Source: an uncultured Hyphomonas sp.
GTDB lineage: Bacteria > Pseudomonadota > Alphaproteobacteria > Caulobacterales > Hyphomonadaceae
Reading direction: 5' to 3' (one strand)
Length of the DNA stretch: 64,000 bases
Assembly: GCF_963976075.1 (NCBI RefSeq)
Contig: NZ_CAXBJH010000001.1
Within the stretch, counting starts at the first letter, position 1. Each line of letters begins with the position of its first letter. Below are positions 5,591-12,950 of the stretch, in pieces. The notes under the pieces were generated by a model. That model saw nothing but the letters and a program-made list of their open reading frames with translations, ran no database searches and was not told where the DNA came from. The translations under genes and the position numbers were made by a program.

Positions 5591-5667
5591 TGGTGGTTCG
5601 GGGGAGACTTGAACTCCCGACCTCGCGATTATGAGTCGCGCGCTCTAACCAGCTGAGCTACCGAACC
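5591..5667 (-). tRNA. tRNA with CAT anticodon (elongator Met or lysidine-modified Ile2; not the initiator)
   Basis: Cloverleaf GGTTCGG/CCGAACC, TAGCTCAG D arm, CGCGA-CTCATAA-TCGCG, GTTCAAGTC T arm, encoded CCA. Confidence 0.95.
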
Positions 5668-5758: not shown

Positions 5759-6139
5759 TCAATCGGCCTCCCCTGCCCCACCGCCCAGACCCGACACCCA
5801 GAGCGCCGCGATGAAGGCGCCCTTGATGCGCGGGAGCAGCAGGAGGACCGCGCCGGTGACCGCGATCGCGGCCATTGGCAAGGCTGCCCAGAGGGGAAAA
5901 TGGCCAAACGAGACGAAGAAGGTGATCGCCACCAGGAACGGGCCGAGTGACAGGACGGTCAGCCAGGCCGGGCCATCATCCGCGCGGATCGCGCCCAATG
6001 GCTCGCCGCACTGGTCACACATATCCGCCTGTTTCAGATAGGCCCGGAAAATCCGCCCCTGCCCGCACTTCGGACAGCGAAAGCGCAGGCCGCGCCAGAT
6101 GGCGGTCATCAGGCTCGGCGCTGCATTGGGCACGGTCAT
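5759..6139 (-). CDS. DUF983-family membrane protein
   Basis: RCPKCGQG...CDQCG...ADDGPAW zinc-ribbon pattern followed by two TM segments. Confidence 0.85.
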   Translation of the reverse strand: MTVPNAAPSLMTAIWRGLRFRCPKCGQGRIFRAYLKQADMCDQCGEPLGAIRADDGPAWLTVLSLGPFLVAITFFVSFGHFPLWAALPMAAIAVTGAVLLLLPRIKGAFIAALWVSGLGGGAGEAD

Positions 6140-6146
6140 GCCCGCA

Positions 6147-7778
6147 TCAGGCCGTCTGGCGGTGGCCCGCCTCAGCCGCCGCCGCGCGGTCGGCCAGGAG
6201 GATATCGACCAGACTTGCGACCAGCGCACGCGGCCGGATCGGCTTTTCGATGATCGTGGTGAAGCCCGCCTGCTCGCAGGCCAGCCGCCGCTCGGGGCTG
6301 ACATCGGCGGTGACGGCAATGATCGGCGCCAGCGCATTTGGCCCGCGCGCGGCGCGAATGGCGGCCAGCACCTCGTCGCCACTTGCCCCCGGCAGGTGAA
6401 TGTCGGTCAGGATGGCCTGATAGGGATGGGTCGCGGCGCGGTCGATGGCGTCCTCGGCGGTCTGCACCGTGTCGACCTGCCAGCCGGCGGCCGACAGGGC
6501 ACGGGTCACGACCAGCGCGCTGACGGCATGGTCTTCGGCAAGCAGGATGCGGCCCAGCTCGAAGGCGCGCATGCGCGGCTTGGGCGGCGCGCCGGTAACG
6601 GCAAGGCGCGGACCCGCCCGTTCGACGGGCATGGTGACGGTAAAGATGGAGCCGCCTTCGGGATTGTCGGCAAGGGTGATCTCTCCCCCCAGCCGGCGGG
6701 CGAGCCCCTTGGCGATGGAGAGGCCAAGGCCAAAGCCGCCATGCGTGCCGGCGGTTGAGGGCCGGGCCTGTTCGAAGGCCTGGAACAGGCGCGCCTTGTC
6801 GGTATCGGTAATGCCACAGCCCGTGTCTTCCACCGTCATGCGCAGTTTCAGATTGCCGGCGGCCTCAAGGGTCGATAGCTCCACGCCGATATAGCCGCGC
6901 TCGGTGAATTTCAGCGCATTGCTCATCAGATTGAACAGGATCTGGCGGATGCGCATGGCATCGGCCTCAAGCCGCGCGACCGCGCCGCCCGCTACCTTGA
7001 TGCGCAGATCCAGACGCTTGCCGGCAATGCGGGACTGCCAGAGGTCCCGGGCGTCATTGGCGAATTCATGCAGGTCGAAGGGGGCATTGTTGACGGCCAG
7101 CTTGCCAGCCTCAAGGCGCGACAGGTCCAGCAGATCGGTCAGCAGCCGGTCGAGATGGTGCCCGCTTTCGGAAATCGTGCGCGCGAGGCGTTTCGGCTCG
7201 CCGCCATTCACGCTGTCCTGAAGCAGATCGGCCACGCCGAGAATGCCGGTCAGGGGCGTGCGGATTTCGTGGCCGACAAAGGCCAGGAAGCGCGCCTTTT
7301 CCTGATCGAAGGCCCCGGCGTCGTTCTTTGTCTTCTGCAAGCGTTTCTGGGCGACCTGCATCGCGCGGGCGCGGGCCGCATTTTCCAGCGCCACCGCAGA
7401 GAGCAGCGCAGACGGGCTGATCAGGCCGAGATATTTGCCCTCAGACAGGACGATCACCCCATCGGTCAGGGCCGAGGTCGAGCCGTCCGCCGCGAGTTTC
7501 GCGACCAGGCCCACCGGGGTGCCGGCCTCGCACATGACGGGCTGGTCGCGCATCAGGTCGGTGATGCGGGCCGCGCCGTTTGACTGGCGGCCACTGGGCG
7601 TGGCCAACGCTTCGATGACGGCGCGCCGCGTGACCATGCCAAGCGCGGCGCCATCGCTGACGATGGGCACGGCGAACTGGTCAGGATCGGCCAGCAATCG
7701 TGTAAACACCGCCGAGACGGTCACAGCTGTTGGAACAGGCCGCACGGCGACCGCAATGTCTTCTACGCGTACCGGCAT
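6147..7778 (-). CDS. hybrid histidine kinase with N-terminal CBS pair (CBS-HisKA-HATPase-REC)
   Basis: HEIRTPL H-box, NLMSNALKF, DTGCG, GFGLGL; REC domain LLAED..TDIHLP..KP. Start taken at the ATG at 7778 (ORF extends to 7850). Confidence 0.9.
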   Translation of the reverse strand: MPVRVEDIAVAVRPVPTAVTVSAVFTRLLADPDQFAVPIVSDGAALGMVTRRAVIEALATPSGRQSNGAARITDLMRDQPVMCEAGTPVGLVAKLAADGSTSALTDGVIVLSEGKYLGLISPSALLSAVALENAARARAMQVAQKRLQKTKNDAGAFDQEKARFLAFVGHEIRTPLTGILGVADLLQDSVNGGEPKRLARTISESGHHLDRLLTDLLDLSRLEAGKLAVNNAPFDLHEFANDARDLWQSRIAGKRLDLRIKVAGGAVARLEADAMRIRQILFNLMSNALKFTERGYIGVELSTLEAAGNLKLRMTVEDTGCGITDTDKARLFQAFEQARPSTAGTHGGFGLGLSIAKGLARRLGGEITLADNPEGGSIFTVTMPVERAGPRLAVTGAPPKPRMRAFELGRILLAEDHAVSALVVTRALSAAGWQVDTVQTAEDAIDRAATHPYQAILTDIHLPGASGDEVLAAIRAARGPNALAPIIAVTADVSPERRLACEQAGFTTIIEKPIRPRALVASLVDILLADRAAAAEAGHRQTA

Positions 7779-7927
7779 GGAGGCGGCGGTGTCCTTACAC
7801 AGGTTAAGAAGCCACCTTGCTTCATAAACCTTTACGCGCCGCAAACACATTCCTAACCAAAAATGAATGCCCGATCCCCTGAGAGGACCGGGCGTTCAAT
7901 TTGGTAACACTTCCGCGCGAAGTGCGC

Positions 7928-8527
7928 TTATTTGACGTCGCTGCGATGGTGCACGATCTGGCCGACCAGACCGTACTCGACAGCTTCGGCCGCGCTCATC
8001 CAGAAGTCACGATCGGTGTCTTCCTTGATCTTCGCGAGTGACTTGCCCGTGGCCTCCGCAAAGATGTTGTTGAGGCGTTCGCGCATCTTGATGATCTCGC
8101 GGGCCTGGATTTCAACATCCGTGGCCTGGCCGCCAACACCGCCCCGCGGTTCATGAAGCAGGAAGCGGGTGTTCGGCAGGCAGAAGCGATTTTCCTTCTT
8201 CGCCGCCGCATAGATCAGCGCGCCGGCCGAGGCGACCCAGCCGGTGCCGAGGATTTTCACGGGCGCTTCGACGAATTTGATCATGTCATGGATCATGTCG
8301 CCGCTTTCGACGTGGCCGCCGGGCGAAGACAGAACCAGCAGGATCGGCTCCTTGCTCTCGGCCGACAGGGCCAGCAGGCGCTGGCTGACGCGGCGGGCGG
8401 CATGGAAATCGATGCCGCCGGTCAGCAGGATGGTGCGGGCCTTGAACAGCGCTTCCTCAAGGAAGGCATTCGGCTCGGACTGGGGCTTTTCTTCTGTCTC
8501 GTCATCGAGGCGGTGCAAAAGGTTCAT
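7928..8527 (-). CDS. clpP: ATP-dependent Clp protease proteolytic subunit (stand-alone ClpP paralog)
   Basis: SSPGG, ASAG (Ser), LLHEP (His), DRD (Asp); no clpX adjacent. Confidence 0.9.
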   Translation of the reverse strand: MNLLHRLDDETEEKPQSEPNAFLEEALFKARTILLTGGIDFHAARRVSQRLLALSAESKEPILLVLSSPGGHVESGDMIHDMIKFVEAPVKILGTGWVASAGALIYAAAKKENRFCLPNTRFLLHEPRGGVGGQATDVEIQAREIIKMRERLNNIFAEATGKSLAKIKEDTDRDFWMSAAEAVEYGLVGQIVHHRSDVK

Positions 8528-8641
8528 GAGGACTCCGAAAGGCGGGAAATCTGGTTGAGCCTATAGGTGAGGTGCCACGCGCGCCGGGTCAAGGCTGGAC
8601 CTGCCTGTCTGCGGGAAAATCTGTGACAGCGGCCAGCGCGA

Positions 8642-8727
8642 TCAGGCCGCCTTACGATGATGCGGGAGACATCCTCGGCGTAGTGCTGGGCCTTTTTTTC
8701 GCCGACGCCGCTGATCAGGTGCAGATC
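8642..8727 (-). pseudogene. displaced degenerate copy of the recQ 3' end
   Basis: 8659-8724 matches 10193-10258 at 64/66 nt. It reads [23 protein letters not shown], then a 1-nt deletion, then KAA-TGA. Confidence 0.85.
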
Positions 8728-10075
8728 AGCGTGCGCAACAATACGTCATTACACGACCATCCCGGTTTAAAACCGGCCCAAAACCTGCGACAATAAACCA
8801 GGGTCCCGCCGCATTGTGCCTACGTGAGACCACGATCACGTCACCGCTCACCAGTCGTTCCGGCACCCACTCGCTCGCATGGGTTATTCCATTCGTTCTC
8901 TCAACGGTGTAGTCTGGTCGAAGCGTGTTAGTCCGCCCGTCGGCATAAGCAAGTAACTCGGCGCTCGAAGGGCTGGTGCGGCCGCAGATTCCAAATCCGC
9001 TCCAATTCTCGTCCAAGAGAATTTCATGCTGCCAGAAGGTGACTTTTCCAGACTGGGGATCTACCTGCGCGGGCTGGAATGGCACAACCGGAAAATAGTC
9101 GTGATAAGGATTGTGATAACCTGAGTGATCGAGCATGAAAGCCCCCCCACCGGACGCTTTCCTTATTCCAGTCTCGCGCTCAATTTTCCCATGAAAGCCC
9201 CACCTGACGCCGTTGAATTTCAACCCTCTGAGTATGTCCCGAATGCCATCCTGCATCTCGTCACTTAGATATTCATACGGCACCCAGGGCGCGCCATTCT
9301 GCGGCAAGAGCGGTAGAATCTCGGATTTCGTATCCTCCGGCAGATAAATGACCGTCGCAGCATTGCACTTGCCCGTGTCCACGCGTCTTCCATGATTTAT
9401 GGCATGTAGCCGTTTGTGCAATTTCACGGACGAGGAAATGGTTCCGGGGATCTGGTGGCCCCACGGCCCCGGCAGGGCGCCGACCTGTTCGAACTCGGCA
9501 GCGGCTTTCTCCCGCCAGGCCCGCCATTCCTCGAGGCTGGATCTGGCGATGCCGCTGTCCAGAACCTCGATCTTTGCATACGGGCTGTCATAGGCCTTGT
9601 CGGACAGGTAGCCGATGGCAAAGCCGATATCGTCCGCATTCGGATACCACATTAGCAGGGGCAGGAAGTCATCCGGCACCCGTTCCGTCACGATTTCCGG
9701 CTTGCCTTTCGGCGTGATGCGTTTCGGCTCCCACATGGAGGCATCGCACACTTCCGGCGTGCGGGCCCCGATCAGTTCCCCCGATTGCGTCGGCACAAGC
9801 ATGATCTGGGGCGCCATGCCGAATGTCACCGAAGGCGTCGTATAGGTCCAGTTTGTCACCTTGCCGCCGCAGGACACGACATAATCGAGCTTCACCAGCT
9901 CGCCCGTCTCTTTCACGCGAATGTCGGCATGCACCCGGAAAAACCCCTTCGGCAAATCCTTTACGCTCACGACAAATGGAGACCCGGCCCTGTCACAGGC
10001 CACGATGAGCAGGCTGGCAACCAGTCCCAAGGCACACTTGCGCACCGCCCCGCGCCACATCCGGCTGATCGTCAT
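8726..10075 (-). CDS. hypothetical lipoprotein (449 aa), apparently horizontally acquired
   Basis: Lipobox LLIVA-C; visibly more AT-rich codons than the neighbours; flanked by the recQ-end duplication. Confidence 0.8.
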   Translation of the reverse strand: MTISRMWRGAVRKCALGLVASLLIVACDRAGSPFVVSVKDLPKGFFRVHADIRVKETGELVKLDYVVSCGGKVTNWTYTTPSVTFGMAPQIMLVPTQSGELIGARTPEVCDASMWEPKRITPKGKPEIVTERVPDDFLPLLMWYPNADDIGFAIGYLSDKAYDSPYAKIEVLDSGIARSSLEEWRAWREKAAAEFEQVGALPGPWGHQIPGTISSSVKLHKRLHAINHGRRVDTGKCNAATVIYLPEDTKSEILPLLPQNGAPWVPYEYLSDEMQDGIRDILRGLKFNGVRWGFHGKIERETGIRKASGGGAFMLDHSGYHNPYHDYFPVVPFQPAQVDPQSGKVTFWQHEILLDENWSGFGICGRTSPSSAELLAYADGRTNTLRPDYTVERTNGITHASEWVPERLVSGDVIVVSRRHNAAGPWFIVAGFGPVLNRDGRVMTYCCAR

Positions 10076-10174
10076 AATGCCCTCCTGTCACACCTCCGGC
10101 GACCTCCTTTTAGGGAATGCGACGTTAACTTCAGGTTGCAGAAAGGATTGAAATTGCGGGAGCGTTGAGCGCCG

Positions 10175-12010
10175 CTACACCGCCTCGCCGACGATGCGGG
10201 AGACATCCTCGGCGTAGCGCTGGGCCTTTTTTTCGCCGACGCCGCTGATCAGGCGCAGCTCGTCGGCGTCGACGGGGCGCTCGCGGGCGATCTCGGCGAG
10301 GGTGCGGTCATGGAAGATGACATAGGGCGGCACGCCGCGCGTCTTGGCGGTTTCGGTGCGCCAGCTGCGCAGCATGTCGAACAGGATCTGGTCGCGCTCC
10401 GACATGTCGGCCAGGGCCTGCGCCGCCACGCGGCTCTTGCCTTTGGCGCGCTTGCGGGTGGCGGCGGGGTCAGCGCGCAGCATCAGGGTGCGGTCACCCC
10501 GGAACAGGGCGCGGGCGGCCTCGGCATCCGGCACCACGACCGCAGGCCGGTTCATCTCGCCGCCTTCGGCCAGCATGCCATCATAGAGCAAGGCATCGAA
10601 CACGCGGCCCCAGCCCTGTTTCGGCATGTCCTTGCCGATGCCATAGGTCGACTGGGTGGAGAGTTCCTCGTCGAAACTGTCCTTGGCCTGTCCGAGCAAG
10701 TGATTGATCAGGCGGCCGCGCCCGATCTTCTGGCCGCAGCGCAGCACGGCGGAGACCGCCATCTGCGCCCAGCGGGTGGCATCATAGGGCTCGCCGGTCT
10801 CGCCCCGGCAGGAATCACACGCACCGCAGGCCTCGACCCCCTCTTCCCCGAAATAGCGGCGCACGGCGGCGCGGCGGCATTCATCGCCATCGAAGAAGGC
10901 AAACAGCTGGCGGGTCTTGGTGATCTGCACGCGCTTGACCGCTTCGGGCGCGTCGCCCTCATAGGTCCAGCTGAGCGAGCGGCGCATGTCGGCGGGCCCA
11001 TAGAGCGCGACGCCTTCGGCAGGCTCGCTATCGCGGCCTGCGCGGCCGACTTCCTGCCAATAGGCTTCCATCGTCTTCGGCGGATCAGCATGGATGACGA
11101 AACGAACGTCCGGCTTGTCGACGCCCATGCCGAAGGCGACCGTCGCGCACATGACGAGGCCATCTTCCAGCAGGAAACGCCGCTGGCGCTCGGCCCGCAC
11201 ATCGGCATCGAGCCCCGCATGATAGGCCAGCGCGGTGATGCCCGCGCGCTCGATGGCCTCGGCGAGATCTTCAGTGGCGTTGCGGGTGGCGGCATAGACA
11301 ATGCCGGACAGGCCCGGACGCGCCTTGACGAGGGAGACGACCCGCTGGGCGCGGTTGCCCTCCTTGGGCTCTGCGGCGAGGGCAAGATTGGGCCGGTCGA
11401 AGCTCGCCACATGGACGGCCGGTTGGGTGAGGTCGAGCTGGGCGAGAATGTCATCGCGCGTGCGGGTGTCGGCGGTGGCGGTCACCGCGAGGCGCGGCAC
11501 GCCGGGGAACAGATCCTTCAGCCGCCCGAGGGCGCGATAGTCCGGGCGGAAATCATGGCCCCATTGGCTGACGCAGTGGGCCTCGTCCACGGCGATCAGC
11601 GAGACCTTCATCTGGGCGAGGCGCTGGGCCAGCCCCGTGCCCATGCCTTCGGGCGAGACATAGAGCAGATCCATCTCGCCGCGGGCGGCCGCCTCCAGCG
11701 CTTCGGCGCGGGCATTGAAGTCCATAGAGGAATCGAGCCGCTCGGCGCGCACGCCGACCTGTTTCAGCGCATCAACCTGATCGGCCATCAGCGCGATCAG
11801 CGGCGAGACGACAATGCCGATACCGTCGCGCAACAGCGCCGGGATCTGGTAGCAGAGCGACTTGCCGCCGCCGGTCGGCAGCACGGCGAGGCCATCCTTG
11901 CCCGCCAGCGTGTCGGCGATGACATCCTCCTGCAGCCCCCGGAAGGCGTCATAGCCATAGACGCGCTTCAGCAGCGCGCGGGCATCATCGAGAGTTGGCT
12001 GGGCAGACAT
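10175..12010 (-). CDS. recQ: ATP-dependent DNA helicase RecQ
   Basis: [47 protein letters not shown]; RQC and HRDC domains. Confidence 0.97.
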
Positions 12011-12059
12011 GTGTTTCTTGTGGCGACGCGAGTGAGTCGGGGCAAGAGCGCAGATGTCT

Positions 12060-12950
12060 TCACGCAGCTATATTCAGCGCCTCGACCAGAAATGTATGGC
12101 GGCGGGCGACAGCGCGGGCGTCGCGGGCATAGCCGCCGCCGAGGACGCCGCAGAGCGGGATGCCGGCTGAGCGGCAGGACCGTGCCACGAATGCGTCCCG
12201 GGCGCGCAGGCCTTCATCGCTGAGGGATAGCAGGCCCAGCCGGTCTTCTGCATGCGGATCGACCCCGGCATTGTAGAAAACGATATCCGGCGATGTGCCG
12301 AGCGCCGCCTCGACCAGGTCTCCCAGCGCCGCGAGATACTCCGCATCGCCCGTGCCCTTGGCGAGCCCCATGTCGAGATCAGACGGCGGCTTCTCGCGCG
12401 GCCAGTTCTGCTCGCAATGTAGCGAAGCGGTGAAGACGCGCGGGTCATAGCGGAAGATCAGCGCGGTGCCGTCGCCGTGATGCACATCGCAATCGATGAC
12501 CGCCACCCGGCGCACTTCCTTCGTTTCCAGCAAGAGCTTTCCGGCAACGCCGACATCATTGAACACGCAGAACCCTGCGCCGCCCTCTGGCCCGGCATGA
12601 TGACTGCCGCCGGCCAGGTTCACCGCCGCCCCCTGCTCCAGCGCAAGCCGCGCGGCAAGGCAGGTACCGCCGACCGAGGCAGCCGAGCGCCGGGCAATGG
12701 CGGGCGTGATCTCGAACCCGACCTTACGCGCCGCTTTCGCCTCCAGCGTCTGCGTCATGATGGCGGTGACATAGGCTTCGTCATGCGCGAGCTGCAGCCA
12801 GTCCTCGCTCGCCGCTTCAGGCTGGATGAAGGCGTGCCCCGCCTCCCGCAACAGATCAGCCACAAGCGCATATTTGCGCATCGGGAAGCGATGGTCATCG
12901 GCGACGGATTTCGCGTCATAATCGGCGTGGTGGACAATCGGCAAGGTCAT
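12060..12950 (-). CDS. histone deacetylase-family protein
   Basis: [32 protein letters not shown]...D.LG, GGGY. Confidence 0.93.

Follow-up and report, generated by a model that had tools for sequence, protein, structure and literature searches.

How does a single gene come to lie between two copies of the end of a housekeeping gene when no recombinase accompanies it? The question is raised by the interval between the helicase gene recQ and clpP in a 64,000-nt stretch of DNA (hereafter the window) from an uncultured Hyphomonas sp. (contig NZ_CAXBJH010000001.1 of assembly GCF_963976075.1), in which one predicted lipoprotein gene (the cargo) is enclosed by a direct repeat of the recQ 3′ end. 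Judging by the names given to related proteins and loci, the organism belongs to marine Hyphomonas. Comparison with relatives demonstrated that the recQ–clpP gap in marine Hyphomonas is a strain-variable slot, which is either empty or occupied by one or two unrelated genes. We consider it reasonably probable that this is an integrase-free slot for accessory genes, built and reshuffled by the cell's own recombination through displacement of the recQ 3′ end. This reading is supported because three unrelated single-gene inserts, none with a recombinase domain, occur in the slot, and because empty and filled alleles are found in backgrounds that are 99–100% identical.

All features of the locus lie on the minus strand. 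recQ (10175..12010) is an intact open reading frame (ORF) of 611 aa with the Pfam domains DEAD, Helicase_C, RecQ_Zn_bind, RQC, and HRDC. The proximal repeat, R1 (10189..10261), lies inside the end of the HRDC domain, forms the functional 3′ end of the gene and holds its last 24 codons. The distal repeat, R2 (8655..8727), is a non-coding copy of the same end. A repeat scan of positions 6000–12500 revealed that R1/R2, with 73 nt at 95% identity and a spacing of 1534, is by far the strongest direct repeat in that region. Its core is identical at 64 of 66 positions (blastn E = 3e-29 on the metagenome contig L001, which is identical to the window), and the likeness is therefore not due to chance. 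Between the repeats, the only ORF with coding support is the cargo gene (8726..10075), which codes for a 449-aa predicted lipoprotein with the lipobox LLIVAC (Cys27) and has no Pfam match; its TGA stop codon (8726–8728) touches the edge of R2. An earlier note on this DNA had described a 66-bp repeat of the recQ end, one enclosed gene without a recombinase and a stop codon abutting the repeat, and all three points were confirmed. The islet has a GC content of 0.53–0.61, compared with 0.65–0.73 in the flanks. The exact cargo protein is indexed in the same arrangement in 68 blocks of independent assemblies; for this reason, and because the repeat is shorter than a read, the R1–cargo–R2 structure is real.

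The cargo is separated from recQ by a 99-nt insert-borne spacer (10076..10174), which has a ribosome-binding site, AGGAGGG, at about 10080–10086 and whose homologue is the spacer of locus L012 (CAACCTGAAGTTAAC / CAACCTCAGGTTAAT). On the other side, R2 continues to a degenerate recQ stop (..CGCATCATCG-TA-AGGCGGCC-TGA, 8642–8664). This includes, at 8642..8656, a junction scar (CG-TA) and the final 11 nt of the native recQ end that was displaced, TGA included (AGGCGGCCTGA). The native recQ–clpP spacer follows (8528..8641), colinear with the empty sites of L110, L098, L101, and L014 and containing a conserved clpP upstream element (TTGACC at 8587–8592 and CCTATAG near 8560). The right-hand conserved flank is clpP itself (7928..8527, 199 aa, identified as an ORF and by Pfam).

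The slot census covered 48 related loci with both the recQ end and the clpP start; two contigs had been fetched twice (L001=L127, L110=L129), leaving about 45 distinct contigs. recQ and clpP flank the slot in 48/48 loci, and the gene order is kept. The gap is empty in about 25 loci, near-identical strains included, and holds the lipoprotein gene in 11, an unrelated gene that we call geneX in nine, the cargo together with geneX in two (L012 and L114; L094 is of the same type and lacks the recQ end), and a third gene, cargoZ, in one (L107). With the combination of cargo and cargoZ described below, the alternative contents are none, cargo, geneX, cargo plus geneX, cargoZ, and cargo plus cargoZ; empty sites and alternative cargo, for which the earlier note had proposed comparing recQ–clpP intervals, thus both exist. 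Filled L007 and empty L098 are 99–100% identical for kilobases on both sides of the slot, and contigs with a ClpP identical to that of the window comprise seven empty and three filled contexts. In a set of 111 recQ loci taken from many bacteria, a second recQ end lies downstream of the gene only at these Hyphomonas loci; 80 of the 111, mostly distant, came from a RecQ scan with universal helicase motifs and served as a negative control, only L014 and L015 from this contig scan being useful as relatives.

The other two occupants are unrelated to recQ and to the cargo. geneX (L116:5001–5765; L094:1457–2239; L012:6587–7378) codes for a multi-pass membrane protein of 254–272 aa and is convergent with recQ. 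Its stop codon in L116 overlaps the recQ stop by 4 nt, and in L094 its frame continues across the recQ-end copy, antisense to it. Each repeat copy in the window carries on the plus strand, antisense to recQ, a terminator-like hairpin with a T-run (8674–8699 and 10208–10233), which would face the end of convergent geneX in the geneX strains and faces nothing in the window. cargoZ (L107:250–1134, minus strand; a related gene region lies at L135:1461–2381) codes for a 294-aa membrane-anchored protein. cargoZ is a recent import, with 93% identity over 739 nt of its body to a gene from an unrelated context of 52% GC. It is chimeric, its N-terminal membrane anchor and last ~10 codons differing from the gene on the low-GC contig. 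A second, overlapping ORF follows the cargoZ-like gene on that contig. Neither geneX nor cargoZ has a Pfam match, and no recombinase domain was found in either.

The empty sites also indicate which of the two recQ ends in the window is native. In Hyphomonas johnsonii and many metagenome contigs, clpP follows recQ at 115–272 nt, and R2 aligns continuously with the tail and spacer of these sites, as far as the conserved clpP upstream element (empty-site sequence in the alignment: ..CGCATCGTCGGCGAGGCGGCCTGA-TCGCGCTGGCCGCTGTCACAG..). Because R2 is colinear with the empty-site tail and spacer, it is the displaced native recQ end, and the copy attached to recQ is the incoming one, which bears out the earlier proposal that the proximal copy restores recQ. 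The alignments place the start of insert-type sequence in the window strain at the last five bases of recQ, TGTAG (10175..10179), for which the empty-site allele has CCTGA. The sequence past the proximal stop is insert-specific, yet its first ~25 nt resemble the native recQ–clpP spacer. recQ in L007 and L114 ends in a distinct insert-type tail of 25 nt (TCGCGAATTGTGTCCGAGGCGGCCTAG), which differs from the native end in 7–8 synonymous codons and one non-synonymous codon. The switch from native to insert sequence thus lies 5 nt before the stop codon in the window and about 25 nt before it in L007 and L114, and therefore the breakpoint inside the repeat varies between strains.

The distal copy varies as well. 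L012 keeps about 111 nt of it, the window and L007 about 90 each, L094/L114 78, L107 about 36 (with small deletions), and L010 about 11; its right end, beside the clpP promoter region, is kept in every case. The pattern looks like erosion and replacement from the cargo side. In L007 the copy has decayed with indels, and the window copy is 95–97% intact. The two copies in L012 differ at eight of their last 29 codons, stop codon included, and all eight differences are synonymous; the 22 nt upstream of these have decayed. The two copies are therefore separately evolved functional recQ ends rather than a gene end and its decayed duplicate, and the distal one was until recently the functional recQ end of another lineage. 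It is contiguous with geneX, as in the geneX-only strains, probably because the pseudo-end, and not recQ itself, was the pairing partner of incoming recQ–geneX DNA. The alignment of L012 with L123 is too divergent for the insertion borders to be mapped. Intragenomic gene conversion was considered for lineage-specific bases common to both copies and was dropped as a necessary reading, since recombination with population alleles explains these bases equally well, the variants segregating among empty alleles (L098 vs. L101). R1 falls in a 45-nt block that has 88–93% nucleotide identity across 20 Hyphomonas-clade recQ genes and is bounded upstream by a variable linker (0.69–0.77); such a block would provide a start or stop point for pairing between diverged relatives.

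The scar beside R2 was read in the earlier note as a stop codon that had degenerated through a 1-nt deletion. R2 does run on to a degenerate stop; the supposed deletion is better read as a junction scar, because the same TA-AGGCGGCCTGA remnant follows a different insert, cargoZ, in L107 and in Logan contigs. The Logan contigs with cargoZ diverge from the window exactly at 8656/8657, and the remnant behind cargoZ ends ..CCGTAAGGCGGCCTGA, the distal copy of the window ..CATCGTAAGGCGGCCTGA. Either the window type arose from an array by loss of cargoZ or cargoZ entered a pseudo-end of the window type.

Such an array is suggested by four sequencing runs (X16, X18, X19, and X20). In each, one Logan contig links a recQ-end copy, 989 letters of other sequence and the window sequence from 8656 into clpP; the 30-letter loose ends at its two borders are the L107 sequence just past the recQ stop and the cargoZ 3′ end. 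A second contig from the same runs leads from the repeat core through the lipoprotein gene and back into the repeat core. No contig with the window-type junction at 8656 was found in X16, X19, and X20; in X18 one further contig continues into a repeat copy at 8656, and this sample probably holds more than one strain. Depths are alike for recQ, cargo, and cargoZ–clpP (11.9, 10.8, and 9.8 in X16; 15.2, 17.1, and 14 in X20), and the repeat core has about double (29.8 and 28.9, respectively). The simplest reading of these data is one genome with recQ–R1–cargo–R2–cargoZ–remnant–clpP. A divergent geneX allele was ruled out as the source of the 989 letters, the loose ends being cargoZ.

Comparison of the window with L007 gave further indications of how the slot is reshuffled. 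The ~4-kb tract from recQ to clpP (12040–8050) has 92–100% identity between the two, compared with 71–91% in the neighbouring genes; the exception inside the tract is the 3′ third of the cargo, at 56–67%. Synonymous divergence (dS) is 0.10 in the N-terminal half of the cargo, 0.16 in recQ, 0.22 in clpP, 0.67 in the neighbouring histidine kinase, and 1.72 in the C-terminal half of the cargo. This pattern along the locus is a recombination mosaic, and together with the identities it fits movement by homologous recombination in the flanks. The tract itself suggests a recent recombinational import of roughly that size; as a speculation, it would suit the transfer of short fragments, for example by a gene transfer agent. 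Within the cargo, the N-half (~9341–9994) is conserved, with 97.7% identity, and the C-half (8726 to ~9340, ~200 codons) is a deeply divergent allele at 60% identity, with breakpoints near 9277–9340 on the left and at R2 on the right. The data indicate that the C-half is an imported old allele that was swapped between strains. Diversifying selection on the C-half was rejected, omega being about 0.2 and the dS of 1.72 lying far above background; given this omega, the gene is under purifying selection.

The displacement that we favour would proceed as follows. An incoming DNA segment, carrying the final ~90 nt of recQ, which are strongly conserved, and behind them a foreign gene, would pair with the resident recQ end and be resolved as an insertion. 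The insertion might occur by homology-facilitated illegitimate recombination (HFIR), anchored upstream and joined illegitimately where the homology ends, or the fragment might circularise and enter by a single RecA crossover that duplicates the homology. HFIR displacement has been proposed for type VI secretion system (T6SS) and Rhs arrays (PMC5361080 and references therein), and linear DNA can form a circle that is taken in through one RecA-dependent crossover (PMC3240628). The incoming end would stay on recQ, and the resident end, joined to the clpP promoter region, would be pushed downstream as a pseudo-end. This pseudo-end would have no function of its own and would still be recombinogenic, offering an extra homology arm by which a downstream gene could be added or replaced. 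Recombination between R1 and R2 could delete the insert, later events would erode the left side of the pseudo-end, and whole haplotypes (empty, one, or two genes) would move among strains and sister species by double crossovers in recQ and in clpP or the histidine kinase. We infer the need for RecA, the way in which the DNA enters and the sequence of events; the architecture, polymorphism, alternative cargo, array, and mosaic breakpoints are what we observed.

Several points weigh against this account. The gain and loss of inserts rests wholly on comparison among strains; the founding event cannot be reconstructed, HFIR and circularisation with a single crossover being indistinguishable, as are one ancient duplication with later turnover and several independent insertions. 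The empty alleles have spacer variants of their own, and none of those seen is a fresh repeat-by-repeat deletion. The check for recombinases spanned only about ±5 kb and used precomputed Pfam hits. The tandem array is drawn from short-read unitig logic and depths, not from a spanning contig. Finally, the perfect retention of AGGCGGCCTGA in several remnants could reflect a preferred junction or some constraint.

A bolder extension is possible, although we regard it as doubtful: the conserved last ~90 nt of the housekeeping gene may act as a reusable, recombinase-free docking sequence, at which fragments of relatives' DNA, each a recQ tail with a gene behind it, stack behind recQ, each arrival displacing the previous tail and cargo, so that RecA builds a small cassette array.

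It might be argued, against any form of capture, that the lipoprotein gene is an old vertical resident, that the repeat stems from one local duplication and that the diversity reflects lineage-specific losses only. The 81%, 59%, and 49% homologues of the cargo all lie behind recQ, the divergence of the cargo roughly tracks that of RecQ, and the window and L007 have the same scar, all of which would be expected of such a resident. This explanation is nonetheless unlikely, as empty and filled alleles occur in 99–100% identical backgrounds, two other unrelated genes occupy the slot, one of them a recent import, the all-synonymous differences in L012 point to two lineages of origin, and the dS of the cargo C-half far exceeds the background of 0.67. 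The duplication, moreover, is not a property of the cargo gene, because no flanking repeats were found when looked for around the 46% cargo homologue that Hyphomonas sp. WL0036 has at another locus.

The decay of a site-specific integrative element is a somewhat less probable explanation still. Cis-mobilisable elements (CIMEs), such as those at the fda site of Streptococcus thermophilus, are att-flanked and integrase-less and share exact att sites with a co-resident integrative and conjugative element (ICE) that mobilises them. The Hyphomonas islet is likewise a small integrase-free unit, with repeats of a gene 3′ end and tandem accretion. Unlike CIMEs, it comes with no mobilising ICE and no fixed att core that we could find. 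Were it a decayed relative of such elements, the repeats would be attL and attR, and an integrase targeting the recQ 3′ end would once have been present or been borrowed in trans. In favour of this are the stacking of inserts, like that of islands at one att site, the same last 11 nt kept in several remnants, direct repeats of a 3′ end with the gene intact, and a geometry known from E. coli, where insertion of e14 or phage 21 into icd leaves the pseudo-3′-end icdC (Hill et al., 1989, as reported in PMC13626634). There, as here, the inserted DNA gives a housekeeping gene a new 3′ end, the native end is left displaced as a direct-repeat pseudogene and recombination between the copies gives a chimeric, functional gene. 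However, e14 is a prophage of 15 kb that brings its own integrase and has a defined att site, whereas the Hyphomonas insert is one gene without a recombinase, and its repeat length and breakpoints vary.

The evidence from the remaining loci stands against such an element. No recombinase was found among the precomputed Pfam hits in any of the about 45 occupied or empty sites or their ~5-kb flanks; the insert is one ORF without a Pfam match, and geneX and cargoZ likewise lack an integrase. Searches with the islet and the repeat against viral contigs (IMG/VR), phages (INPHARED), and plasmids (PLSDB) gave zero matches, so that no free form on a phage or plasmid was found. A fixed att core is also lacking, the distal copy ranging from 11 to 111 nt with a varying switch point, and the similarity between incoming and native sequence extends ~25 nt beyond the stop and fades gradually, as homeologous DNA does. 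For want of an integrase, a fixed core, and a free form, the islet does not belong among site-specific integrative elements. Nor is it an integron: no integrase lies in the flanks, the borders are recQ-end copies, and the repeat scan found no imperfect inverted repeats at the cassette borders, no dedicated attC model having been applied. No paper on recQ as a site of integration came up in a literature search. The earlier suggestion that recQ is an att-like or homology-driven capture site for single-gene cassettes can therefore be kept, for this Hyphomonas clade, in its homology-driven half; the att-like half is not supported, in view of the missing recombinase and free form, the variable repeat length and breakpoints and empty alleles that are not excision products of the filled ones.

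That the distal copy is kept for a function, for example as a terminator or in clpP regulation, is very unlikely. The hairpin and T-run on the plus strand (8674–8690, 10208–10224), the running of geneX into the repeat in geneX strains and the 95–97% intactness of the window copy might be taken to favour it, but cargo and clpP are encoded on the other strand from the hairpin, L007 has a decayed copy with indels, the copy is about 36 nt long in L107 and nearly gone in L010, and the empty sites need no second copy. An assembly artefact from a duplicated or collapsed repeat, which the earlier note had named as a possible refutation and for which only the general repeat risk of metagenome assemblies speaks, is effectively refuted by the same arrangement in dozens of independent assemblies from different pipelines, by a 73-nt repeat that is shorter than a read and by Logan unitigs that run from the cargo gene into both repeat copies.

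Recombinational displacement of the recQ end, the reading that we prefer, has two known counterparts. C-terminal displacement arrays are found at rhs, contact-dependent growth inhibition (CDI) as well as T6SS effector–immunity loci (Jackson et al., 2009; Kirchberger et al., 2017, PMC5361080). As in those arrays, the locus has a conserved upstream anchor, old 3′ ends and downstream genes are pushed down as orphans, and build-up occurs without an integrase, HFIR having been proposed there, with a probable later spread by homologous recombination. In those systems, however, the displaced ends are toxin domains with immunity genes, whose retention is explained by selection for immunity, whereas the anchor here is the end of a housekeeping helicase, the displaced ends are short fragments without a start codon or function, and each cargo gene is an ORF of its own, related neither to recQ nor to the others. 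The minimal mobile elements of Neisseria (Saunders and Snyder, 2002, as cited in PMC1797815 and PMC3787668) are, in these citing accounts, likewise slots between two conserved genes that hold alternative small gene sets or nothing and carry no mobility genes; they are exchanged by homologous recombination in the flanks. The Hyphomonas slot has neither transposase, integrase, nor terminal inverted repeats, and its mosaic identities and dS would fit exchange of the same kind. The Neisseria elements are not known to leave a duplicated flanking-gene end, and Neisseria is naturally transformable. We therefore file the locus with the integrase-free variable slots, as one with a displacement scar, which works through known processes and has a somewhat unusual anchor.

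The cargo belongs to an orphan family with 23 detectable relatives, all apparently Hyphomonadaceae. In the family alignment the lipobox Cys27 is nearly invariant, and further cysteines are conserved, including a C-terminal CC-x-R. The AlphaFold model is confident (pLDDT 80.8, pTM 0.82) but had no fold match in a Foldseek search of the PDB (best E 0.08, TM about 0.1), and the predicted fold may be undescribed. No function was assigned to cargo, geneX, or cargoZ because Pfam gave no match and, for the cargo, neither did the PDB.

Two other variable regions were noted near the locus. The only tRNA in the 64 kb is a tRNA-Met (CAT) at 5591–5667; beside it, below about 5565, similarity to L007 and L114 collapses to 40–60%, a strain-variable region that abuts the tRNA and in L007 holds a gene for a 947-aa BACON-like protein. 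The gap between a deacetylase-like gene and recQ (12011–12059) has ~930 extra bp in many relatives (L003, L007, L098, L110, L125, and others), which include two small paralogous ORFs of 160 and 175 aa on the opposite strand, and the deacetylase C-terminus of these relatives differs (301 vs. 296 aa). A flanking duplication was looked for at this indel and none was found. Variable DNA thus flanks recQ on either side.

In summary, the recQ–clpP slot illustrates cleanly, in nature, how a chromosome gains, stacks, and loses small accessory genes without mobile-element machinery. A duplicated gene end is usually read as the mark of an integrase but can come about and last through homology-anchored recombination alone, which calls for caution when annotators recognise integrative elements by flanking 3′-end repeats. 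With several alleles in one abundant marine genus, isolates included, the locus is a workable test system. If the docking of tail-and-gene fragments were true, it would be a homology-driven counterpart of the integron or of Rhs displacement for ordinary accessory genes, and the process may be common behind other conserved genes.

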